Assembly: GCA_038061035.1 (NCBI GenBank)
Contig: JBBUAC010000023.1
Span: forward strand, 1 to 37,823
Reading direction: 5' to 3'
DNA length: 37,823 nucleotides
Source: Patescibacteria group bacterium
Lineage (GTDB): Bacteria > Patescibacteriota > Minisyncoccia > Phycocordibacterales > UBA9973
The position numbers and the translations under genes are program-made. Position 1 is the first letter of the stretch; every line of letters starts with the position of its first letter. The notes beneath the pieces are model-generated. The model saw only the letters and a program-made list of their open reading frames with translations, ran no database searches and had not been told where the DNA came from. Of the stretch, positions 7,989 to 36,977 are shown in pieces.

Positions 7989-8053
7989 TTACAAATTTTC
8001 AATTACGAATTACGAATTTAAATTCATAATTCGTAATTCGTAATTCGTAATTT
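7987..8053. terminator. ATTACGA-heptad palindromic hairpin (family copy 1), a bidirectional terminator between convergent genes
   Basis: ATTACGAATTACGAATTT|AAATTCATAATTCGTAAT is a near-perfect palindrome centred at 8020/8021. Extra AATTCGT units follow, then TTTTT. Confidence 0.7.
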
Positions 8054-8578
8054 TTAATTGTTTCCTATGTATTTAATTATTACCCTACGAGAACGACCGT
8101 ATCCTTCGGATTCGGTTTTTAAATCTGTAGCATTAGAAAGAAATTCATGTACTATTCTCCGTTCGTAAGCCGGCATTGGGTCAATCTCTATATTTGATTT
8201 AAAATAACGAGCTCGTTCCGCCATCATATGCACTATTGCATGAACATTTTCTATTCTTTTTTTCTGAAAACCATTCATATCAATAATAATATTTACGTTT
8301 TCGAATGGGATTTTGTTGTCTGTATTGGGAATTAATTCACTATCTTTGTTTTTTGAAAATATTTTATTTTCTATCATTCTGCGAGCAATGTGATTTAATG
8401 CGAAAAGAGCTTCACCTTCACGATTTAAGAAAAAATGTGGTTCTTTTGTTGTGATTTCAAACCATGTTGTTTTTATTTGATTTTCTTTTTCATCTTCTTT
8501 TACAAGAATCTCATCAAAAACTGTTGTGGTTTTTTCAATTAATTCCTTTATTAAGTTTTCTATTTCTTGTTTTTGCAT
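8054..8578 (-). CDS. khpB: Jag/KhpB RNA-binding protein (KH + R3H domains)
   Basis: C-terminal R3H-type MPAYERRIVHEFLS...SEGYGRSRRVII. Position is directly downstream of yidC. Confidence 0.75.
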   Translation of the reverse strand: MQKQEIENLIKELIEKTTTVFDEILVKEDEKENQIKTTWFEITTKEPHFFLNREGEALFALNHIARRMIENKIFSKNKDSELIPNTDNKIPFENVNIIIDMNGFQKKRIENVHAIVHMMAERARYFKSNIEIDPMPAYERRIVHEFLSNATDLKTESEGYGRSRRVIIKYIGNN

Positions 8579-9380: not shown

Positions 9381-9438
9381 AATTACAAATTATGAATTTT
9401 GAATTTCAAATTTATTTTTTAATTCGTAATTCGTAATT
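9381..9438. repeat. ATTACGA-heptad hairpin (family copy 2, degenerate left arm) between yidD and yidC
   Basis: Left arm AATTACAAATTATGAATT (9381-9398), right arm AATTCGTAATTCGTAATT (9421-9438). Confidence 0.65.
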
Positions 9439-9450
9439 TGAAATTTTTAA

Positions 9451-9964: not shown

Positions 9965-9987
9965 AAAATTAATTAAAAATTATCAAT

Positions 9988-10024
9988 TAAGAATTACGAA
10001 TTAAAGTATAATTCGTAATTCTTA
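9988..10024. repeat. ATTACGA-heptad hairpin (family copy 3) between rpmH and rnpA, overlapping the rpmH stop codon
   Basis: Perfect 15-bp stem TAAGAATTACGAATT (9988-10002) / AATTCGTAATTCTTA (10010-10024) with a 7-nt loop. Confidence 0.8.
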
Positions 10025-17813: not shown

Positions 17814-17833
17814 AATAAGAATTATAAATTAAA

Positions 17834-17877
17834 AATTACGAATTACGAATTTAATTTTTAATTCGTAATTGATAATT
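17834..17877. repeat. ATTACGA-heptad hairpin (family copy 4) between yebC and ruvC
   Basis: Left arm AATTACGAATTACGAATT (17834-17851). Right arm AATTCGTAATTGATAATT (17860-17877), with the outer half degenerate. Confidence 0.65.
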
Positions 17878-22426: not shown

Positions 22427-22581
22427 AGAGAAGGCATTAATCTCTAAGCAATCAGCCATCGGTTATATATATTTGCGTAGGACGCTCTGGTTTTTTTTAA
22501 AATACTGGGTCTATCCTTCAAAAATTTATTACTTTCTGGGCTTAGCCCTAAAAGGATTGTTTAGAGATTAATGCTTTTTTT
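22427..22581 (+). ncRNA. Candidate structured small RNA of about 150 nt, class unknown
   Basis: TTGCTT/TATAAT-like promoter, with the -10 at 22415-22420. A 20-bp closing helix pairs 22434-22453 with 22555-22574 (one G-U pair). T7 follows immediately. There is no downstream plus-strand gene. Confidence 0.4.
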
Positions 22582-22613
22582 GTGCCTCTACGGCACATCC
22601 GCCGAAGAGGCGG
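22581..22613. repeat. Two adjacent GC-rich mini-hairpins
   Basis: TGTGCC-TCTAC-GGCACA (22581-22597) and CCGCC-GAAGA-GGCGG (22599-22613). The string CGCCGAAG..GGCGGAAC recurs at 25584-25598 in tsaE. Confidence 0.65.
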
Positions 22614-25136: not shown

Positions 25137-25643
25137 ATGGGAAAGATAATGCAAAAAGTTTCAAAAAACACTAAAGACACAGAAAAAATTGCGCAAGATT
25201 TTTTAAAACACCTTATGTCAAAGGGAACCTTTGACACTGCTTGTGTGGTCGGCTTGTCGGGGGATTTAGGAACAGGGAAGACTACATTTACTCAATTTAT
25301 TGCTAAAAATTTAGGAATAAAAACAAAAGTAAAAAGTCCGACATTTGTGATAATGAAGCGGTACACCCTCACCCCAACCCTCTCCCGAAGGGAGAGGGGG
25401 CATAGATACAAAAATCTCTTTCACATCGACGCCTACAGATTAAAAAATGAAAAAGAATTATTACACCTTGGTTGGGAAGAAATTGTTTCAAATCCAGAAA
25501 ATTTAATTTTTATAGAATGGCCAGAAAATATTAAAAAAGCTATGCCAAAAAAATATCACAAAGTATTTATAAAACACTTGCCTCGCCGAAGCGGAACGAA
25601 GGCGGGCACAAAAGAAGGACACAGAAAGTTTAGAATAAAATAA
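25137..25643 (+). CDS. tsaE: tRNA t6A37 biosynthesis ATPase TsaE, with an internal insertion and a C-terminal extension
   Basis: GLSGDLGTGKTTFTQ, SPTF, HIDAYRL motifs. The insert TLTPTLSRRERGHR and the tail LPRRSGTKAGTKEGHRKFRIK coincide with GC-rich hairpins. Confidence 0.85.
   Translation: MGKIMQKVSKNTKDTEKIAQDFLKHLMSKGTFDTACVVGLSGDLGTGKTTFTQFIAKNLGIKTKVKSPTFVIMKRYTLTPTLSRRERGHRYKNLFHIDAYRLKNEKELLHLGWEEIVSNPENLIFIEWPENIKKAMPKKYHKVFIKHLPRRSGTKAGTKEGHRKFRIK
25378..25398. repeat. GC-rich perfect hairpin inside the tsaE coding sequence
   Basis: CCCTCTCCC-GAA-GGGAGAGGG (9-bp stem) within a GC-rich patch at about 25363-25402. Confidence 0.85.
25579..25608. repeat. GC-rich hairpin in the 3' end of tsaE
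   Basis: TGCC(T)CGCC ... GGCGGGCA is 8 bp with one bulge. It shares CGCCGAAG.CGGAAC with 22600-22616. Confidence 0.6.
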
Positions 25644-25741: not shown

Positions 25742-28180
25742 ATGCAAGAAAAATTAGAAAAACCAAAACTACTAGTTTTACTTGACGCCCACGCAATAAT
25801 CCATCGGGCATATCATGCATTGCCTGACTTTTTATCTTCAAAAGGAGAGCCAACTGGTGCATTATATGGATTGGCGTCTATGTTGATGAAAATTATTACA
25901 GATTTGAAGCCAGATTACATAGTAGCTTGTTATGATTTACCACAAAAAACTTTTCGTCACGAAGCGTATAAAGAATATAAAAAAGGCAGAGCAAAAGCAG
26001 ACGAAGCATTAGTTTTGCAATTAATAAATTCTCGTCAAATTTTTGAAGCATTTGATATACCCATTTATGATGCGTTAGGGTTTGAGGCAGACGATGTATT
26101 AGGAACAATCGTGAAGAAAATGAAAAATAATAAGAGTATAAATATAATCATTGCATCAGGAGATATGGATACAATGCAATTGGTAGATGATAAAAAAGTA
26201 CAAGTATATACATTAAAAAAGGGAATAAATGACACCATTTTATATGATGAAAAAAAAATGATAGAACGATTTGGTTTTAAGCCAGAATTTTTACCAGATT
26301 ATAAAGGACTTCGCGGTGATTCATCAGACAATATCATAGGAATAAAAGGAATAGGAGAGAAAACAGCAACGACCTTGATAATAGAATTTGGAACTATTGA
26401 AGAAATGTATAAACAATTACGAACTAAGAATTACGAATTACGATTTAAAAATATTGGCATATCTCCAAGAATTTTAGAATTACTTAAAAATAACGAAGAA
26501 GAAGCTTTATTTTCAAAAACATTGGCAAAGATACGAACAGATGCACCTGTTGATTTTAAATTACCAGAGAAAACTTTTTGGGAAAATGCAGATTTAAAAA
26601 AAGTTGAAGAAATGTTTGTTAAATTTGAATTTAGAAGCTTATTGACTCGTTTAAAAAATTTTTTTGGAAATAATAATTCGAATTTACAGACATATGTTCT
26701 CCAGAATTCGCATTCTGTCTTGGAAGAGCAAGGTTTTTCTGGTCGTAGCGAAGATTCTTCCGAACATATCTCTGTAAATTCTGCGAAGTTTCAAGAAACG
26801 GCCATTGCGTTGTGGCTTATAAATTCCGAAATTACAAATCCTAAATTAGAAGATATTTTATCTTTTTCTAAAACAAATTCTTTTGAAGAAGCGAAAGAAT
26901 ATATTTTTGAAAAATTAAAAAATGATAAATTAGATAAGGTTTATAAAGAAATAGAATATCCTATTATTCCTATAGTAAAAAATATGGAAGATATTGGGAT
27001 TTTGATAGATAAAAAATATTTTGAAAATTTATCAAAAGAATATCATAAAGAATTGGATAAATTAACTCTCAAAATATATAAAATAGCAGGAACAGAGTTT
27101 AATATAAACTCACCAAAACAATTAGGAGAAGTTTTATTTGAAAAAATGGGAATACGTTCTGGTAAAAAAAGAGGAGCTAGTGGTAATTTATCAACTAAGA
27201 TTTCTGTATTGGAGGAATTAGAAGAAGAAAATCCAATTATTACTGAGATTATAAATTATAGAGAATTGCAGAAATTACTTTCTACTTATATTGATGTAAT
27301 CCCCAAAATGGTTTCTGATGATGGAAGATTGCATGCTAAATTTTTACAAAATGGAACAAGTACTGGCAGGTTTTCTTCACAAGACCCAAATTTACAAAAT
27401 TTGCCGATTAAAAGCGATCTTGGAAAAAGAATTAGATATGGATTTATTGCAAAAAATGGCTATAAACTCGCATCTTTTGATTATAGTCAAATAGAACTTC
27501 GTGTTGCAGCTATGCTCTCGGGAGATAAAAAAATGACACAAATATTTTGTGATAAAAAAGATATTCACTCTGGGGTGGCGTCTTTTGTTTTTAATGTTCC
27601 TCTTGAAAAAATAGACAGTGAAATGCGTCGCTCTGCTAAGGTAATAAACTTTGGCATTATTTATGGTATGGGTGTGTCTTCTTTGCGTAAAAGTCTAGGT
27701 GGTACACGGCCAGAGGCGCAAAAGTTTTATGATAATTATTTTAATCAATTTTCTGGTGTGGCAGATTATTTAAATAATGTAAAAGAATTTGCTACTAAGA
27801 ATTTATATACTGAGACTTTATTTGGCAGAAAAAGATATTTTGCTAATATAAATTCCAGAATTCCATTTTTAAAAAACATGGCAGAGCGTACTGCCACAAA
27901 TGCACCCATACAAGGTACAGCGGCGGATATAATAAAGCTTGCGATTTTATACGCAAATGAAGATCTAAAGAAAGAGAATTTGTTGTCTGATGCAAATCTC
28001 GTATTAGTAATTCATGATGAATTGGTTTATGAAATAAAAGAAGATATATTAGAAAGTGCTGAAAAAATAATTAAAAATGCAATGGAAGGAGTTCTGGAAA
28101 GGTCTTATATACATTACAAAAATGATATTCCCCTTACAGTGTATTCTGGTTCTGGAGATAATTTTGGAGAGGTAAAATAA
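25742..28180 (+). CDS. polA: DNA polymerase I (5' nuclease + polymerase domains; the 3'-5' exonuclease region is vestigial)
   Basis: 5'-nuclease GFEADDVLGT and GIKGIGEKTA. Polymerase motifs DYSQIELR, RRSAKVINFGIIYG, VIHDELV. Confidence 0.95.
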   Translation: MQEKLEKPKLLVLLDAHAIIHRAYHALPDFLSSKGEPTGALYGLASMLMKIITDLKPDYIVACYDLPQKTFRHEAYKEYKKGRAKADEALVLQLINSRQIFEAFDIPIYDALGFEADDVLGTIVKKMKNNKSINIIIASGDMDTMQLVDDKKVQVYTLKKGINDTILYDEKKMIERFGFKPEFLPDYKGLRGDSSDNIIGIKGIGEKTATTLIIEFGTIEEMYKQLRTKNYELRFKNIGISPRILELLKNNEEEALFSKTLAKIRTDAPVDFKLPEKTFWENADLKKVEEMFVKFEFRSLLTRLKNFFGNNNSNLQTYVLQNSHSVLEEQGFSGRSEDSSEHISVNSAKFQETAIALWLINSEITNPKLEDILSFSKTNSFEEAKEYIFEKLKNDKLDKVYKEIEYPIIPIVKNMEDIGILIDKKYFENLSKEYHKELDKLTLKIYKIAGTEFNINSPKQLGEVLFEKMGIRSGKKRGASGNLSTKISVLEELEEENPIITEIINYRELQKLLSTYIDVIPKMVSDDGRLHAKFLQNGTSTGRFSSQDPNLQNLPIKSDLGKRIRYGFIAKNGYKLASFDYSQIELRVAAMLSGDKKMTQIFCDKKDIHSGVASFVFNVPLEKIDSEMRRSAKVINFGIIYGMGVSSLRKSLGGTRPEAQKFYDNYFNQFSGVADYLNNVKEFATKNLYTETLFGRKRYFANINSRIPFLKNMAERTATNAPIQGTAADIIKLAILYANEDLKKENLLSDANLVLVIHDELVYEIKEDILESAEKIIKNAMEGVLERSYIHYKNDIPLTVYSGSGDNFGEVK
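26415..26446 (+). repeat. ATTACGA-heptad repeat half-element inside polA coding sequence
   Basis: AATTACGAACTAAGAATTACGAATTACGATTT. The 15-mer TAAGAATTACGAATT (26425-26439) is identical to 9988-10002. It encodes RTKNYELRF. Confidence 0.7.
26680..26781 (+). repeat. 102-nt palindromic element in frame inside polA
   Basis: GAATTTACAGACATATGTTC (26680-26699) against the reverse complement of 26762-26781 (GAATTTACAGAGATATGTTC) matches 19/20. There is further imperfect inner pairing. The length is 34 codons. Confidence 0.75.
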
Positions 28181-30550: not shown

Positions 30551-33436
30551 ATGTTTCTTTTGTTAAAAAAGACATTGAAATTTGTAATTATAATTATTAT
30601 AGTCATTTTCACCTTTTCTGGATCAATTTTTATATCAGCATTTTTTGCACAGTTTATTATCAATATGCAAAATGTGGATATTACACTCGGTTCACTTGAG
30701 AGTTCAGATACTGAATTCACAGTTTCTTTTGCTCCATCTTCTGGTGTAAATAATGAGTCATATCGTATCACTGCATTTTCTAATTGTAATCAAAATGAAT
30801 ATGATGATTTTGGAAATTGTATTGATCTTGTTCCTAATTTATGCCCATATCTTTCTCTCCAGCCAAAGAACGAAGAGATAACAGAAATTGGTTTTACTCA
30901 AAACTTATCTGATTTTCAAGCCACGGGTCAATTAAATAATCCTGATGATGAAATTGATATATGGAATCTCTCAATTAAATCCCCGTGTTTTGAAGGAGAA
31001 TGCCCCACCGATTATGATGAATTTCAAAATGGTGCTCCGTTGCCACAAATACTTAAAAACCAAACCTTTAAATGCGTTCTTTCTGTAGAAACAAGTGACA
31101 TTCCCGAACTTGTTAAAAATTATTTAGAAAAAAATATTATTTATGCAGATGATTTTATAAATTCTCTTGAGGTGTCGGCAATATTTACAGGAGAACTTCC
31201 AGGTTGTATCACTGATTGTTTTTCAAATGTTTTATTTTTGCCTGGGATGATGGGGTCAAAACTTTATGAAGCAGGACTTGATTGTGATGATGTATTTGTA
31301 GGAAATGAATGTGGAGATAAAACTATATGGGTTTCTATATTTGATAATTTACAAAAAAAGCTTTCGCTTGATGCACTAGGAAAAAGTATTAACAACCTTT
31401 TTACTAAAAATGATACCCAATATGACGGGGGAAATGAAATGGGTATTATAGACGAGATAGGTGTTTTTAATATTTATAAATCTTTTATTTCTGATTTAAA
31501 GAAGTGGAAAGAAGAGGAAAAAATAATAGAGGACTATGCTTTTATTCCGTATGACTGGAGATTGTCGCTAGAAGATATTATTTCAAATGGAAAAGTTTTA
31601 GAAGAAAATCTTTCATATACAAATTCTCAAAATTTTGAAGAATCATTTATTTTAAAAAAATTAGAAGAACTTCAAAAAACTTCCAAATCAGGCAAGGTCA
31701 CTATTCTAGCTCACTCTAATGGTGGTTTAGTGACTAAAGCATTGATGCAAAAATTAAAAGATACAAACAATCCTCTCTATGAAAAAATAGACAAAATTAT
31801 TTTTGTAGCTGTGCCTCAAGTTGGAACACCAGAAGCATTTGTGAGTTTGCTTCATGGAGTAAAAGTTGGCAAGGGATTTGTAATGAATGCTGACATGGCT
31901 CGCAACTTGGCTGAAAATATGCCGACAATTTATAATTTACTTCCTTCAGAGAATTATTTTACCAATCTTCAAATTCCATTTACTTTAGATAAACTAATAT
32001 CGTTTCAAGATAAAGAAATATTTAAAAAAGAAATATCTAAATATGATTTAATGATAGATAATTATTCAGAACTTAAAGCATATATTTTAGGAAAAGAAGA
32101 AAGAGACAAACCATCATTTGAAGATACAAGGAATCCAAATATTGGTAACTCTTTTTTATATGATCAAGCACAAGCCGTGCATCAAATATTGGATAATTGG
32201 CAACCATCATCAGAAACTAAAGTTATACAAATAGCTGGTTGGGGAGAGGAAACTATAGCAAGCATAGAATACAAAGAATATATTACTAGAGAATGTAAGG
32301 ATGGTATTTGCGGACCAAGTTCAAAAATTTCTTATAAAATTAAAAAAGTCATTGACGGCGACGGAACTGTTGTTGTCCCCAGTACTCTTTTTATGTCTCC
32401 ATCAGAAAACATTGAGAGATGGTGGGTGGATTTGAAAGAAATTAATCGTGGTAAATTAAGAAAATATAATCATAAAGACATTTTAGAAATCCCAAACTTA
32501 AGAGATTTTATTAAATCTAAAACAAAAGATGAAGTTTTGTTTATTGATTCAGAAAATATTGTTTTAAACAATAATTTAAATCTTAAATCAAGTAAATCTC
32601 GTCTCCACTTTCAACTCCACTCACCGTTATACCTTGGAATAATTGATAATGAAGGAAGATATACAGGTATTGACCCAATTACAAAAGAAATAAAGGAAGA
32701 AATTCCAGATGTTACATATCAACAAATAGGCGAAGTACAATTTCTTTCTATTTCATATGGATTAGAATATACATTAAAACTTCAAGGTTATACTGAAGGT
32801 AGTTTTTCTTTAGATATAGACAAACAAGAAGGGAATGAAATAACAGAGTCTGCTTCATTTCAAGGTATTCCATCAGACTCTAATACTTTAGCTACTTTAG
32901 CAATAGATACAAATTTCAAAGTAGGAGATTCTGTATTAAATATTGATAATAATGGAGATAAAACAACTGACATTACTTTAATAGCTATATTAAATGGGAC
33001 AACATTATACGAAGAGTCAAAAGAATTATCATCTAAATCAATAATTTATTCTGGAAATTCCCAAGAAAATCCATCTGCGTCCGGAGCAGTAAATATATTT
33101 ATGATTGCACAAAATAATAAAACAGATAATATTGTGTATGAAGAAAATATAGAGCAAATAAAAAATCAAATAGAGAAAAAAGAAGAAGTTTCTGAAATAA
33201 ATATAGTAAATAATAAAATTAAAAAGAATAATTTTAAACCAAAGATAGAAGTTGCAAAAAATATAGAAGATAATTTAAAAACACCACAAAAAACAGAAGT
33301 AGAATCAAAAAATGAAGTTTTTCCACTTCAAGCTTCAGTGGTAGAATTTAACACAAATAATTCAGCAAAATTGCCAATAATTATTGTTTCTTTGTTTTTA
33401 GTCGGTATTATTATTTTTAAATTTATTAAGGTATAA
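30551..33436 (+). CDS. Large cell-surface protein with an LCAT/PGAP1-like alpha/beta-hydrolase (lipase/acyltransferase) domain
   Basis: N-terminal and C-terminal TM segments and a Cys-rich N-terminal region. FLPGMMGSKLYE, nucleophile elbow ILAHSNGGL, DGDGTVVVP, and a later NHKDIL as candidate His. Confidence 0.6.
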   Translation: MFLLLKKTLKFVIIIIIVIFTFSGSIFISAFFAQFIINMQNVDITLGSLESSDTEFTVSFAPSSGVNNESYRITAFSNCNQNEYDDFGNCIDLVPNLCPYLSLQPKNEEITEIGFTQNLSDFQATGQLNNPDDEIDIWNLSIKSPCFEGECPTDYDEFQNGAPLPQILKNQTFKCVLSVETSDIPELVKNYLEKNIIYADDFINSLEVSAIFTGELPGCITDCFSNVLFLPGMMGSKLYEAGLDCDDVFVGNECGDKTIWVSIFDNLQKKLSLDALGKSINNLFTKNDTQYDGGNEMGIIDEIGVFNIYKSFISDLKKWKEEEKIIEDYAFIPYDWRLSLEDIISNGKVLEENLSYTNSQNFEESFILKKLEELQKTSKSGKVTILAHSNGGLVTKALMQKLKDTNNPLYEKIDKIIFVAVPQVGTPEAFVSLLHGVKVGKGFVMNADMARNLAENMPTIYNLLPSENYFTNLQIPFTLDKLISFQDKEIFKKEISKYDLMIDNYSELKAYILGKEERDKPSFEDTRNPNIGNSFLYDQAQAVHQILDNWQPSSETKVIQIAGWGEETIASIEYKEYITRECKDGICGPSSKISYKIKKVIDGDGTVVVPSTLFMSPSENIERWWVDLKEINRGKLRKYNHKDILEIPNLRDFIKSKTKDEVLFIDSENIVLNNNLNLKSSKSRLHFQLHSPLYLGIIDNEGRYTGIDPITKEIKEEIPDVTYQQIGEVQFLSISYGLEYTLKLQGYTEGSFSLDIDKQEGNEITESASFQGIPSDSNTLATLAIDTNFKVGDSVLNIDNNGDKTTDITLIAILNGTTLYEESKELSSKSIIYSGNSQENPSASGAVNIFMIAQNNKTDNIVYEENIEQIKNQIEKKEEVSEINIVNNKIKKNNFKPKIEVAKNIEDNLKTPQKTEVESKNEVFPLQASVVEFNTNNSAKLPIIIVSLFLVGIIIFKFIKV

Positions 33437-33445
33437 TATATTTAT

Positions 33446-33859
33446 ATGAATAAAATTATTGAGTGGTTTACAAGAAAGAAATTAATTATAGTAAGTATAT
33501 TATCATTGATATTATTATTTTTAATTGAAGTAGATAATGTAACTCATTTTTTATGTAAATTAAAAAATTATAAGTGTTATGATTTATTTGATTTTATTTT
33601 TTTGATACTTCTTTTTTTTGTATTATTATCAATACCAATTTTATTAACTTTTATTTTTAAAAATAAAGATATTTTTGATTTTTGGAAAAAAACTTTATTT
33701 ATCTATTTTTTTATTTATCTATTTTTTATTATATTAGTTCCTTGGAATTGGGGAGATGTATATTTACCAATATATAAAGGAACTGTTGCATTAGCTTTAA
33801 ATATTTTATTTTTAATTTTCTCTATTATTTTTATTATTTATAAATCCATCAAAAAATAA
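33446..33859 (+). CDS. Polytopic membrane protein of unknown function
   Basis: 137 aa with about 4 hydrophobic segments. TATAAT lies 8 nt upstream of the ATG. Confidence 0.5.
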   Translation: MNKIIEWFTRKKLIIVSILSLILLFLIEVDNVTHFLCKLKNYKCYDLFDFIFLILLFFVLLSIPILLTFIFKNKDIFDFWKKTLFIYFFIYLFFIILVPWNWGDVYLPIYKGTVALALNILFLIFSIIFIIYKSIKK

Positions 33860-33887
33860 GTCATTTTTGTGCTAGAATAGGATTTAT

Positions 33888-36800
33888 ATGAAAGATTACT
33901 TACAAGAAATTCAAAAATATTTTTATGATGAAAACAGCTCTGAACATTCATATCGGACTTCTTTTGAAAATTATTTAAAAGAAATTTTTCCAAAAGAAAA
34001 AGGTTATTTTACACAACAAGACCAAAGAGCTATAAATGGAAATAAACCTGATTTTATTATATTTAAAAATAAAGTTCCCTTACTTTATATAGAAGTTAAA
34101 AAAGTTGGGGAAGATTTAGATAAAATTGAAAAATCTGATCAAGCTGATAGATACTTCGGTTACAGCAACTTGATAATTAGCGATTACGTTAATTTTAGGT
34201 TTTTTAGAAATGGGCAGAAATACAATGAAGAAATTTCTCTCGGAGATATAGATAAAAACGGAAGATATATAAAAATAAAAAATGAAAACTCTGATTATTT
34301 AATAAAAACAATTTTAGATTTTGTTTCTTCTAATAAAGAACCAATTAAGAGTGGAGTACATCTTGCAAAAATAATGGGAGGAATAGCAAAGCGTGTTAGG
34401 TCTAATGTATTAGAAATGCTTTTTTCTAAATCAGAGCGTTATATAGAATTGTTTAAAATAAGGGATGTTGTGAAAGAGAATTTGATTTCAAGTCTTGACG
34501 ATAATTCTTTTGCAGATATGTATGCGCAGACTTTAGTTTATGGTCTTTTTTCAGCTCGATATAATGATACAACACTTAATAATTTTTCCCGTATTGAAGC
34601 TCGGGAACTTATACCAAAAACAAATCCATTTTTAAGATCTTTCTTTGACCATATTGCAGGAAATACTTTTCCAGAAAGACTACGATTTATTGTTGATGAA
34701 TTATGTGAAGTTTTTACTCATGCCCATGTGCATAATCTTATGCATGAGTATTTTAAAAAAGAAAGTTTGTTTGGAGAAGTATATGAAAGTCCTGATCCAG
34801 TTATTCATTTTTATGAAGATTTCTTGCGTGAATATGATGTAAAAAAGAAAATGGAAATGGGAGTTTTCTACACACCTCGTCCAGTAGTACAATTTATTGT
34901 TCGCGCGGTGGATAGTATTTTAAAAAGTGAATTTAATCTTTTAAAAGGTTTGGCTGATAAAACCAAAATACAAATAGAAAGAAAAGAAATAGATAAAAAG
35001 GGAAAAACAATTAAGATTCAAAAAGAATATCACAAAGTTCAAATTCTTGATGTGGCTACAGGCACAGGAACATTCTTAAATGAAGTCATTAAACATATTT
35101 ATAAAGATTTTATTGGTCAAGAGGGTCATTGGCCATCATATGTAGAAGATAATCTTTTGCCAAGATTGCATGGTTTTGAGCTGATGATGGCTTCTTATAC
35201 TATTGCTCATTTGAAATTAGGTATGACACTTCAGGACACAAAGGCTGGGGAATTAAAAACTCGTTTGGGGGTATATCTTACAAATACACTTGAAGCTTCG
35301 GTGGACTATGCAAATCAAGGTACTTTATTTGGTTTAATGGATAGTATCGCTCAAGAAAGTAAAAGTGCTTCAAAGATAAAATCAGAATACCCCATTATGT
35401 GTGTAATTGGGAATCCACCATATAGTGGTGTTTCTCAAAATAAAATTTATACCGACAATAATGTTTATAAAGTAGAGATAGGAGGCAAACAAAAACTTCA
35501 AGAAAGAAAACATTGGTTGGATGATGATTATGTTAAATTTATTCGCTTTGCTGAAAGTCTAATAGAGAAAAATGAGGAGGGAATTATTGGAATGATTACT
35601 GCTCATGGATATATTGATAACCCTACATTTCGGGGAATGCGATGGCACTTGAGAAACACTTTTGACAAAATTTACATTCTAGATTTACATGGAAATAGTA
35701 ATAAGGGGGAAATAAGCCCTGATGGATCAAAAGACGGTAATATTTTTGATATTAAAACCGGTGTAGCTATAATTTTAGGAATTAAAAATTCTAACATTAA
35801 AAATAAAAAATTGGCACAAGTTTTAAAAGCAGATTTCTATGGAATTCGTGCAGAAAAATTTAAAAAATTGGATATTTCAAATATTGATAAAATAGATTGG
35901 ACAAAACTACCAGAAAATACAGATTTATGGGTTCTTGAAGGAGTGGGTAAAACTGAATATAAAAAAGGGTTTTCTGTCGCTGAGCTGTTTCCCAAAAATA
36001 CAACAGGAATTGTAACTGGAATAGATAAATTATCCATTTTTTACACAAAGGATGAATTAGAAAAAATAACGAAATCTATCCTAAATTCAAATAATCCCTA
36101 TGTAGAATTTAATATTAAGGATGGAAGAAAATATAAAAAAGAAGAAAGATTAAAAGAATTAAAAGAAGCATCAGAAGATAAACCGACTTTAATTTCTTAT
36201 AGGTCTTTTGATGATAGGTGGATGTATTATACAAAAGGATCAGAAGTTTGGATTAATTCTCCAAGATTTGAGATAATGCAAAATTTTATAAATAAAGATA
36301 ACTTAGGATTAATTGTTTGTAAGCAAGTAAAAAGTGGAGATTCATGGCAACATTTAAGTATCTCTAAAAATATAATTGAATCGTCTTTCATTTCTAATAA
36401 AACTGGAGAAATAAATTCTAGTTTACCTCTGTATTTATATACAGAACAAGGAGAAAAGATTCCAAACTTAAACAAAGAAATTTGCGAGAAAATAAATGAG
36501 GAAGCAGGAGAAACAACGCCAGAAAATATTCTGGATTATATATACGCAGTTTTACATTCACCTAAATATCGAGAAACCTATAAAGAATTTTTGAAAATAG
36601 ATTTTCCTCGTGTGCCATATCCGACTGACAAAAAAGAATTTGAAAGATTAATTAAACTTGGAGAAAAATTAAGAAATCTGCATTTAATGATTGACCCAGA
36701 TTGTGAAAGATTTATTACAAAATATTCTGTAGCGGGTGGTAATTTTGTGGAAAAAGTAAAATACGAAAATGGTAATGTTTATATAAATACTACTCAAAAT

Positions 36801-36977
36801 TTTAAAGGTGTTCCAGAAATTGTTTGGAATTTTTATATTGGAGGTTATCAACCTACACAAAAATATCTAAAAGATAGAAAAGGAAAACAACTAAATAGTG
36901 ATGAAATAGAACATTATCAGAAAATAATTAAAGTTTTATTTGAGACTAATAAGATAATGAAGGAGATAGATAAATAA
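33888..36977 (+). CDS. Single-chain Type IIG/IIL (MmeI-like) restriction-modification enzyme
   Basis: N-terminal PD-ExK candidate KPDFIIF...YIEVKK. MTase motif I ILDVATGTGTFL, motif IV GNPPYSG. The C-terminal target-recognition/Type ISP-like region includes YIYAVLHSPKYRETYKEFLKIDFPRVPYP. Confidence 0.8.
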   Translation: MKDYLQEIQKYFYDENSSEHSYRTSFENYLKEIFPKEKGYFTQQDQRAINGNKPDFIIFKNKVPLLYIEVKKVGEDLDKIEKSDQADRYFGYSNLIISDYVNFRFFRNGQKYNEEISLGDIDKNGRYIKIKNENSDYLIKTILDFVSSNKEPIKSGVHLAKIMGGIAKRVRSNVLEMLFSKSERYIELFKIRDVVKENLISSLDDNSFADMYAQTLVYGLFSARYNDTTLNNFSRIEARELIPKTNPFLRSFFDHIAGNTFPERLRFIVDELCEVFTHAHVHNLMHEYFKKESLFGEVYESPDPVIHFYEDFLREYDVKKKMEMGVFYTPRPVVQFIVRAVDSILKSEFNLLKGLADKTKIQIERKEIDKKGKTIKIQKEYHKVQILDVATGTGTFLNEVIKHIYKDFIGQEGHWPSYVEDNLLPRLHGFELMMASYTIAHLKLGMTLQDTKAGELKTRLGVYLTNTLEASVDYANQGTLFGLMDSIAQESKSASKIKSEYPIMCVIGNPPYSGVSQNKIYTDNNVYKVEIGGKQKLQERKHWLDDDYVKFIRFAESLIEKNEEGIIGMITAHGYIDNPTFRGMRWHLRNTFDKIYILDLHGNSNKGEISPDGSKDGNIFDIKTGVAIILGIKNSNIKNKKLAQVLKADFYGIRAEKFKKLDISNIDKIDWTKLPENTDLWVLEGVGKTEYKKGFSVAELFPKNTTGIVTGIDKLSIFYTKDELEKITKSILNSNNPYVEFNIKDGRKYKKEERLKELKEASEDKPTLISYRSFDDRWMYYTKGSEVWINSPRFEIMQNFINKDNLGLIVCKQVKSGDSWQHLSISKNIIESSFISNKTGEINSSLPLYLYTEQGEKIPNLNKEICEKINEEAGETTPENILDYIYAVLHSPKYRETYKEFLKIDFPRVPYPTDKKEFERLIKLGEKLRNLHLMIDPDCERFITKYSVAGGNFVEKVKYENGNVYINTTQNFKGVPEIVWNFYIGGYQPTQKYLKDRKGKQLNSDEIEHYQKIIKVLFETNKIMKEIDK

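Follow-up and report, generated by a model that had tools for sequence, protein, structure and literature searches.

An in-frame palindromic insert in polA of a Patescibacteria bacterium is one copy of a dispersed repeat family with a conserved core and copy-specific arms

The stretch of DNA analysed here, 37,823 nt of contig JBBUAC010000023.1 (assembly GCA_038061035.1, a Patescibacteria group bacterium) and in the following called the window, carries the gene for DNA polymerase I, polA, and within this gene there is a palindrome of 102 nt that keeps the reading frame. The gene and the parts of the element are the following.

25742..28180, forward strand: host gene polA (DNA polymerase I), an uninterrupted open reading frame (ORF) of 812 amino acids (aa), identified by its Pfam domains and by alignment to Taq Pol I
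26680..26781, forward strand: whole palindrome, 102 nt or 34 codons, aa 313-346, in translation SNLQTYVLQNSHSVLEEQGFSGRSEDSSEHISVN(S)
26680..26693, forward strand: left outer arm, copy-specific, complement of 26768-26781
26694..26767, forward strand: conserved 74-nt core of the type we call class A, ATGTTCTCC...GGAAGAGCAAG...GTAGCGAAGATTCTTCCGAACAT, the part common to all other copies
26768..26781, forward strand: right outer arm, copy-specific, the last 8 nt of which, GTAAATTC, are the codons V-N-S

Pfam places the 5'-nuclease domains of this PolA at aa 11-276 and DNA_pol_A at aa 425-810. In the alignment with Taq Pol I, which is the best solved relative, aa 8-302 correspond to Taq 10-283 and aa 395-786 to Taq 424-812. 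The stretch between the two parts is 92 aa long, or 58 aa without the insert, compared to about 140 aa of vestigial 3'-5' exonuclease domain in Taq; the exonuclease region has here shrunk to a short tether that joins the 5'-nuclease and polymerase parts, and the insert begins 11 residues past the end of the former. An AlphaFold2 model built on a 45-sequence alignment gives residues 310-343 a pLDDT (predicted local distance difference test) of 21-26 and no secondary structure, with confident helices at 298-311 and 347-360 on either side, and thus predicts that the 34 inserted residues, a hydrophilic loop in a flexible tether, are disordered. The closest proteins are from Patescibacteria of the Nomurabacteria or Paceibacteria type, with 73-82% identity and lengths of 789-841 aa. 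All four 812-aa PolA sequences in the 90%-identity cluster, recorded on several contigs, have the identical insert; a tryptic peptide spanning it would be, for example, SEDSSEHISVNSAK.

The sequence-only reading of this locus had described a 20-nt inverted repeat with 19 of 20 positions matching, an interior of 62 nt that pairs imperfectly with itself, a length of exactly 34 codons with the frame kept, a GC content above that of the surroundings and a position in the linker that replaces the 3'-5' exonuclease domain, and all of this held up. The arms at 26680-26699 and 26762-26781 are the only two matches in the window, where 0.01 would be expected (none of 100 shuffles reaches two), and repeat finding lengthens them to 28 nt with 86% complementarity (26680-26707 and 26754-26781). 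A folding check had also been proposed, and the segment folds far better than shuffled sequence both as RNA (-36.2 kcal/mol, z = -4.27, equalled by none of 200 shuffles) and as DNA (-19.6 kcal/mol, z = -4.91, equalled by no shuffle), with the 62 nt between the arms folding on themselves. With a GC content of 0.41, positions 26700-26799 exceed both the flanks (0.17-0.30) and the window as a whole (0.286). No third copy of the 20-nt arm could be found in the window, but since the arm is specific to each copy this search is uninformative, and searching a whole genome with the 20-mer would wrongly suggest that the element is unique. A scan of the window for GC islands was too unspecific to locate elements, and Rfam 15 gave no match to the palindrome at gathering score, only weak hits with E values of 1.8 and 7.6.

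In an effort to see what other species have at the same place, we took polA with 10 kb on either side from 80 species-representative genomes (L-numbers name these and related loci) and excised the linker DNA, which is delimited by the motifs FEFRSL and IALWLINS. Among 120 aligned close PolA proteins, many carry the homologous peptide xALRRSHSILEGQDxSGSSEYSSEH, while in others the peptide is unrelated or next to nothing is present. The excised linkers vary from 45 to 88 aa, and the long ones always fold as a strong hairpin. At least six hairpin sequence families, classes A to F, occupy the site across species. Class A, the window type, is present in 20 of 78 species, in one of them with the core inverted, and the rest include class B (ESFGAGLAGVGDPENRGPEKTLL), class C (with the peptide EFSxVLGSPGP.TPARPFENSL), class D (TSPPAPLLTGEGGQ.PGEV) and the further families E and F. 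Short AT-rich linkers with no structure are found in L025, L081, L058 and L039. The alignment of relatives with about 75-80% identity, which the sequence-only reading had recommended, has therefore returned the same element, a different hairpin or a short linker with no hairpin at all. We considered whether the peptides EFSRVLGSP... and ...ENRGPEKTLL could be class A DNA read in another frame or on the other strand, and rejected this; they belong to the separate hairpin classes C and B, and the only truly inverted class A core among those linker peptides is SLRNDQKELALPG... of L052.

In the closest relative, L204 (82% aa identity), the core is again of class A, and the arms, GCGAAGAATCATACTC / GAGTATGATTCTTCGC, are different throughout. 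Three other linkers hold remnants or composites: half a class A core in L053 (5849-6016), class C beside the right half of class B in L036 (10853-11095), and in L023 (3529-3714) class D preceded by the left half of class B. These show that one element replaces another at the same site. The classes are patchily spread over species that are nearly equidistant in the PolA tree (distances of 0.20-0.27), and the order of gains and losses can not be recovered from it.

The segment in polA belongs to a family of palindromic repeats, dispersed and of low copy number, that sit inside genes for DNA repair and other housekeeping functions of ultrasmall Nomurabacteria-type Patescibacteria. Copies were sought with blastn and nhmmer in the genome loci, which for each genome cover the 10 kb on either side of polA, and in metagenome contigs. 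The polA linker inserts of all classes match 88 additional places outside the linker in the same loci. The 74-nt core of class A is found in 40 places among the genome loci and the window, and in at least 41 metagenome loci where the core was confirmed by profile; after de-duplication there are at least 75 distinct copies, 38 from the window and the species-representative loci and more than 40 from the metagenomes. A scan of the metagenomes with a degenerate pattern gave at least 120 rows, and about two thirds of the 120 listed were chance matches, as expected from the information content of the pattern, and these were removed with the core profile. The copies listed come from Nomurabacteria-type genomes and metagenomes, on independent contigs and from many samples. 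Within the window the core profile, which was built from a 38-copy alignment that includes the window copy, matches 26694-26767 only, at E values up to 10. A search for other copies had been proposed as well, and such copies exist, although what recurs is the core and not the 20-nt arm; related genomes have it in further genes and, in a few cases, between genes.

Long ORFs contain 72 of the 75 copies listed, and the remaining three are intergenic. In 70 copies the orientation and the reading phase are the same and the core encodes xALRRSHSILEGQxxSGxSEYSSEH, in two it is inverted (polA of L052 and the gene for the CCA-adding enzyme of L157), and all 72 lie in a frame that is open and free of stop codons. 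Class A occupies the polA linker, two places in uvrA, two in uvrB (YFP^DFLTIIDESH and VRPVSE^YPGQIQDF), one in uvrC and the HD domain of the CCA-adding enzyme (cca). When 1.8 billion representative proteins were searched exhaustively with a profile, though blunted by their clustering at 50%, two hosts were added, an rRNA methyltransferase of the KsgA type and a class I glutamine amidotransferase (GATase), the latter with the element at its C-terminus; one candidate from that search, P0126, proved to be an unrelated repeat protein. In phage and plasmid collections there was no true class A match, and the single match to a viral contig was not recognised by the core profile.

Two variants depart from the common phase. 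The inverted cores in L052 (10914-10987, polA) and L157 (5519-5593, cca) lie in intact ORFs that encode a different peptide, SLRNDQKELALPGRGANDGEQ, and are consistent with flipping by recombination between the arms. The cca copies in L095, L116, L119, L145, L153, L161 and L200 have a core of 75 nt, where an extra base shifts the frame midway (ALRRSHTILEGQDQKLSQRILLRA...) and the frame is restored further on.

The terminal repeat had been taken as the repeated part of the element, and on this point the picture is reversed, as the central 74 nt are repeated and the outer 14 nt of each 20-nt arm are specific to the copy. In a gapless alignment of 38 class A copies (A1), columns 30-103 have low entropy and include 11 invariant positions, whereas the 14 columns on either side reach 1.63 bits, compared to 1.67-1.73 bits beyond the stem. 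These outer columns are paired in about 85-95% of the copies, with all four pair types at most positions, and all 28 outer pairs that were tested change on both sides in a compensatory way. Their covariation score is 0.461, against 0.144 in shuffles (reached by none of 500) and 0.09-0.18 in slid controls. RNAalifold, run on the same copies, draws a helix between columns 16-34 and 99-117 with 18 of 25 predicted pairs compensated, and this helix ends exactly at 26680 and 26781, the limits that had been read from the window sequence. No variation is seen in the inner helices (TCGC/GCGA and CTTG/CAAG), which are therefore uninformative on covariation. What the copies have in common at the stem is only the inner 6-9 bp that close it, and some 11-16 further bp differ from copy to copy.

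There are no terminal repeats common to the class A copies in A1. Direct matches at the flanks have a length of 0 in 21, 1 in 14 and 2 in 3 of the 38 copies, and are, though no shuffle control was made, too short to suggest a target-site duplication. The palindromes are 84-108 nt long with a mode of 102 nt at four gene sites (polA, uvrA, uvrB and uvrC) despite their differing arms; those of exactly 102 nt in A1 are the window copy, L001_17260, L008, L024_15356, L031_1723, L046_15305 and L066_19179. The mode may reflect a limit near 20 bp of stem. Within the core a purine block, TGGAAGGG (columns 57-64, about 26721-26728), is complementary to CTCCTCCG (columns 91-98, about 26755-26762), and the two blocks resemble Shine-Dalgarno and anti-Shine-Dalgarno sequences. 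RNAalifold favours their pairing over a local hairpin, and the only changes in it are from G-C to G-U, which give no covariation support.

The origin of the arms is clearest at the first uvrB site. Where this site is empty it reads LSYFP(P)DFLT... with 18-24 aa, and where it is filled it reads LSYFPH-xKNxEx-[core]-xxPDFLT... with 50 aa; the right arm, CCTGATTTTTT, consists of the native codons for PDFL and the left arm is their reverse complement. Even synonymous codons are mirrored, as in L055 where CCGGATTTTCTT on the right stands against AAGAAAATCCGG on the left. The native arm is YPGQI at the second uvrB site (L036) and GEF in uvrA (L001), and it lies downstream wherever this can be judged. 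In uvrC the linker lengths of filled and empty alleles are too variable to set the insertion boundaries. In the window copy, GTAAATTC (V-N-S) aligns with the motif [VI][DN]xxKLQE that precedes the next PolA segment in orthologues; to judge from this alignment the end of the right arm looks like native polA sequence, and the left outer arm is probably an inverted copy of the right-hand sequence.

How far the transferred unit extends is indicated by L066, where the uvrC core is 98% identical to the uvrB core and the identity stops 3 nt beyond the core. The extensions differ, with a perfect 11 bp in the young uvrC copy and a decayed one in uvrB. The unit that is transferred would thus be about 76-80 nt, and the arm specific to the site would arise at the insertion or soon after. 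Core identity between genomes is 0.785 whether the copies stand at the same site or not, whereas copies at different sites within one genome have a mean of 0.836 and reach 0.98 for uvrB and uvrC in L066, 0.97 for polA and uvrB in L024 and 0.95 for polA and uvrA in L001. The copies resemble their genome-mates rather than their positional orthologues, and these identities indicate ongoing copying or conversion of class A cores within genomes.

The entropy of the core is 0.54, 0.52 and 0.52 bits at codon positions 1, 2 and 3, and among the nine species with class A at the first uvrB site the inner core has an identity of 0.79, whereas the four-fold degenerate sites of the 100 codons that flank it have 0.40. 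Together these values point to constraint, or youth, at the level of the nucleotides and not of the peptide, with which the other peptides encoded by the inverted copies and the 75-nt cca variant agree.

The most rational explanation of the class A element in polA, and in our judgement a likely one, is that it is a selfish or neutral palindromic repeat that has no host function, is translated along with the gene and is tolerated in the flexible tether. The open frame argues that the insert is read through. The spread of the core would be of the copy-and-paste kind, with template switching from a copy already resident while DNA is synthesised. The new strand would then snap back on the hairpin and copy the adjacent native sequence in inverted form, which would give the copy-specific arm, and later intrastrand conversion may keep the arms matched, by the quasi-palindrome correction that has been invoked for coding palindromes of Nematomorpha (PMC6649704). 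Selection would retain only insertions in the open, hydrophilic phase at permissive loops. The unused forward phases of the core are hydrophobic (MLSVVRTLSWKGK...) or contain a stop, and the bias in phase and orientation would follow from selection for the phase that is open and hydrophilic. The host genes are co-oriented with dnaA and dnaN, and this together with the downstream position of the native arm would, speculatively, fit events on the lagging strand.

Known repeats that work alike are the Rickettsia palindromic elements (RPE) and the intragenic repetitive extragenic palindromes (REP) that are taken up below, and of the suggestion of a MITE-like (miniature inverted-repeat transposable element) or RPE-like insertion made from the letters alone, the RPE part stands, with the core recurring in frame, while the MITE part falls for want of shared terminal repeats and target-site duplications. 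The RPE (Ogata et al. 2000, as summarised in PMC10969869) are palindromes of about 100-150 bp in several families in a reduced AT-rich genome, and like class A they lie in frame in unrelated housekeeping genes that stay open, give a recurrent peptide for each family and are regarded as selfish DNA tolerated in surface loops. Class A likewise is a dispersed family at no less than seven gene sites, forms hairpins, stands in frame in open ORFs and has orthologues with no insert. It belongs to a different phylum, and we liken the two by their way of working and not by sequence. The RPE consensus spans the whole element and about half of the copies are intragenic, whereas class A conserves only the central 74 nt, with an outer stem that is copy-specific and covarying, and 72 of the 75 copies listed lie in ORFs. 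The arms of RPE are also reported to decay (PMC6649704), while many class A arms are perfect.

Several points weigh against a selfish or neutral repeat that spreads in this way. No transposase, master copy or excision footprint was seen in the 10 kb on either side of polA in each genome, where no systematic search for transposases was made, and mobility is thus deduced from relationships between sequences only. The conservation of the core, far above that of neutral sites, could equally mean that the sequence has a function for the host, and a model of purely selfish DNA gives no reason to expect the strong concentration in polA and uvrABC. The snap-back model leaves the 102-nt mode at four sites unexplained, and if one of the arms is native, nothing in itself makes the net insertion divisible by three. 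Translation is deduced from the open frame, and the copy numbers cover only the 10 kb round polA in each genome.

A more far-reaching variant, which we regard as rather unlikely but hold ahead of the other alternatives, is that the elements are self-extending hairpins that spread in a way not described before. Their core would spread by template switching, snap-back would add a kind of inverted target-site duplication that conversion keeps perfect, and the bias towards polA and uvrABC would reflect a real functional link to excision repair or Pol I and not mere tolerance. If that were true, the elements might arise during, exploit or modulate the excision repair or Pol I pathway. Coding palindromes in the mitochondria of Nematomorpha (PMC6649704, where byps are also mentioned) have some of the same traits, with long near-perfect inverted repeats in functional coding sequence, arms that seem to be actively kept identical, and gains and losses between species, for which template switching or repeat conversion has been proposed. 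They do not, however, have a conserved core or form a repeat family as class A does, and both of their arms code for conserved protein, whereas in class A one arm usually lies in the inserted, unconstrained sequence.

The gene bias is also among the points in favour of the idea that the element has been co-opted as a cis-acting RNA or DNA element of genes for nucleic-acid maintenance (polA, uvrA, uvrB, uvrC and cca), for instance as an entry site for RNase III or another nuclease, or as a protein-binding site, that could tune the expression of excision repair in organisms that lack a classical SOS operator. We made a de novo census of perfect stems of at least 12 bp with loops of 3-110 nt in ORFs of at least 150 aa in 81 loci. 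After merging there were 41 sites in polA, 23 in uvrB, 12 in uvrA and 19 in uvrC, which is 95 in 421 kb, compared to about 20 in 820 kb of other ORFs, the latter a raw, unmerged count. The enrichment in polA and uvrABC is roughly ten-fold and not absolute, as cca, ksgA and the GATase gene are hosts too. The other genes include 2 genuine sites in the penicillin-binding protein gene, 3 in that of the type II secretion ATPase, none in ruvB and 1 in the tyrosyl-tRNA synthetase gene; a larger excess in the first of these was an artefact of a masked run of N (L045:2393-2491, about 70 false hairpins) and disappeared when nested matches were merged. The same bias has been described for unrelated small palindromes in other phyla, the intragenic GTAG/CGTC REPs, which Di Nocera et al. 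2013 (PMC3733652) found in uvrABCD, recBCD, Pol I and dnaE2 of Opitutus, Rickettsia, Thioalkalivibrio and Thauera and left unexplained. Repair and replication genes are often the sole REP-tagged genes of a genome (PMC3733652).

A cis-acting role would also suit the conservation at all codon positions, the conserved blocks in predicted loops with the mutually complementary GGAAGGG and CTCCTCC, and the compensatory changes that maintain the pairing of the stem. Many species however have no hairpin or one of an unrelated class at the same sites, the copies occur in both orientations, and hosts such as KsgA and the GATase lie outside the proposed set. The inner helices show no compensatory changes, Rfam has no match, and the window itself has one class A copy in 37.8 kb, the one in polA, and no uvr genes adjoining that gene. 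We therefore find co-option doubtful. The plainest cause of the bias would, as we infer, be that these are large proteins, dispensable in the short term, with flexible loops and under strong drift; a mechanistic or regulatory link is the other explanation that we have considered.

Just as doubtful, in our opinion, is a non-autonomous transposon (a MITE, or a REPIN built from REP sequences) moved by a dedicated enzyme that is encoded elsewhere, e.g. a REP-associated tyrosine transposase (RAYT) or a tyrosine (HUH) transposase of the IS200/IS605 type that acts on single-stranded hairpins. A family of many copies, near-identical within genomes, is what such a transposon would give, the conserved core could serve as the recognition site, and transposases that target hairpins in single strands leave no target-site duplication, which fits the 38 copies. 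In the class A consensus the tags of the two REP superfamilies (PMC3733652) both occur, CGTC in columns 38-41 and GTAG in columns 81-84. The unexplained gene bias is the same in the GTAG/CGTC REPs, which are likewise small palindromes inside uvrA, uvrB, uvrC, uvrD, the DNA polymerase I gene and similar genes in several phyla (PMC3733652). The tetranucleotide match is weak evidence, however, and the window copy has CAGA instead of CGTC. A REP unit is 20-40 nt with a conserved stem, while class A has an asymmetric core of 74 nt, the halves of which are not inverted copies of one unit. REPs and REPINs keep their arms and vary the loop, the opposite of class A, and REPs are mainly extragenic and of high copy number, whereas class A is almost exclusively intragenic and of low copy number. 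We know of no association of class A with RAYT genes, and the flanking DNA gave no sign of a transposase gene within the limits given above. Bacterial MITEs such as the Correia, ERIC and Coxiella QMITE elements (PMC10969869, PMC5896051) are also short, non-coding, hairpin-forming and multi-copy, and occasionally fused in frame. They have terminal inverted repeats and target-site duplications, and class A has neither. To our knowledge there is no parent insertion sequence for class A.

A selected protein module, with the palindrome incidental to a functional loop or interaction motif in PolA and the Uvr proteins, is very improbable. The peptide SHSILEGQ..SG.SEYSSEH recurs in one phase in the 70 copies listed and the insert is hydrophilic and exposed, but third codon positions are as conserved as the first and second, the inverted copies of L052 and L157 encode an unrelated peptide, and the 75-nt core in the CCA enzyme changes frame midway. 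Moreover the other hairpin classes bring unrelated peptides to the same sites, some orthologues have none, and the predicted structure is disordered.

Yeast mitochondria have GC clusters and byp elements, which are palindromic mobile inserts, richer in GC than their surroundings, in reduced AT-rich genomes and in some cases inside coding regions. The byps are organellar; ribosomes bypass them, and there is no need for them to preserve the reading frame, whereas class A is bacterial and all the 72 ORF-embedded copies listed are in open frame, which argues for translation by read-through. Translational bypass, as in byps or T4 gene 60, or an intervening sequence that is removed from the mRNA, is therefore disfavoured, judging from the sequences. 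That the palindrome is a chance or locally evolved inverted repeat or an assembly artefact is hardly credible, as the uniqueness of the 20-nt arm in the window and the many weak inverted repeats that AT-rich genomes contain, also seen when repeats were sought in the window, stand against fold z-scores of -4.3 and -4.9, 75 related copies listed from independent contigs and many samples, and the identical insert in four 812-aa PolA sequences on several contigs.

In the literature we found no description of such elements in Patescibacteria. A selfish or neutral repeat would bring the Candidate Phyla Radiation (CPR) into the range of selfish DNA within protein-coding sequence, which has been known from Rickettsia and a few proteobacteria. 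Several hairpin families exist side by side here and have supplanted each other time and again at one and the same permissive loops in PolA, UvrA, UvrB and UvrC. Among bacterial repeats, two features stand out as unusual. One is a conserved core with copy-specific, covarying stem extensions that often are native coding sequence, and the other is the bias towards excision repair and Pol I, which reproduces an unexplained observation from other phyla; a clade with many species and independent sites makes this bias testable by comparative genomics. There is also a practical side. Inserts of this kind make protein alignments longer and distort them, give the appearance of "domains" specific to a lineage, and can disrupt the assembly or gene calling of CPR genomes.

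The window contains other repeats. The tsaE ORF upstream of polA (25137-25643) has two more small GC-rich inserts in frame, at 25367-25405 (TLTPTLSRRERGH) and 25580-25609 (LPRRSGTKAG); the first, which includes the hairpin CCCTCTCCCGAAGGGAGAGGG, is similar to the left part of the class D element, and TsaE of L204, the closest relative, has neither of them. The heptamer AATTACG occurs in runs that make palindromes in four intergenic regions (8001-8059, 9381-9445, 9985-10024 and 17827-17877), and a direct run of it lies inside polA itself at 26415-26446 (peptide KNYELRF), 230 nt upstream of the class A palindrome. There are 16 matches to AATTACGAATTACGAATT in the window with up to 2 mismatches, where 0.02 would be expected. 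Between ruvB and a LOG-family (lysine decarboxylase-like) gene there is an intergenic segment of 147 nt (22431-22577) with 23-nt inverted repeats that are 91% complementary; it has no Rfam match, is followed by a terminator-like hairpin at 22580-22600, and may be a small RNA that has escaped annotation, or a further repeat. Downstream of polA, where relatives have uvrB-uvrA-uvrC, the window has at 30551-36977 a gene for a 961-aa LCAT-like lipase and a Type ISP restriction-modification gene, which suggests that this part is a rearranged or inserted island.

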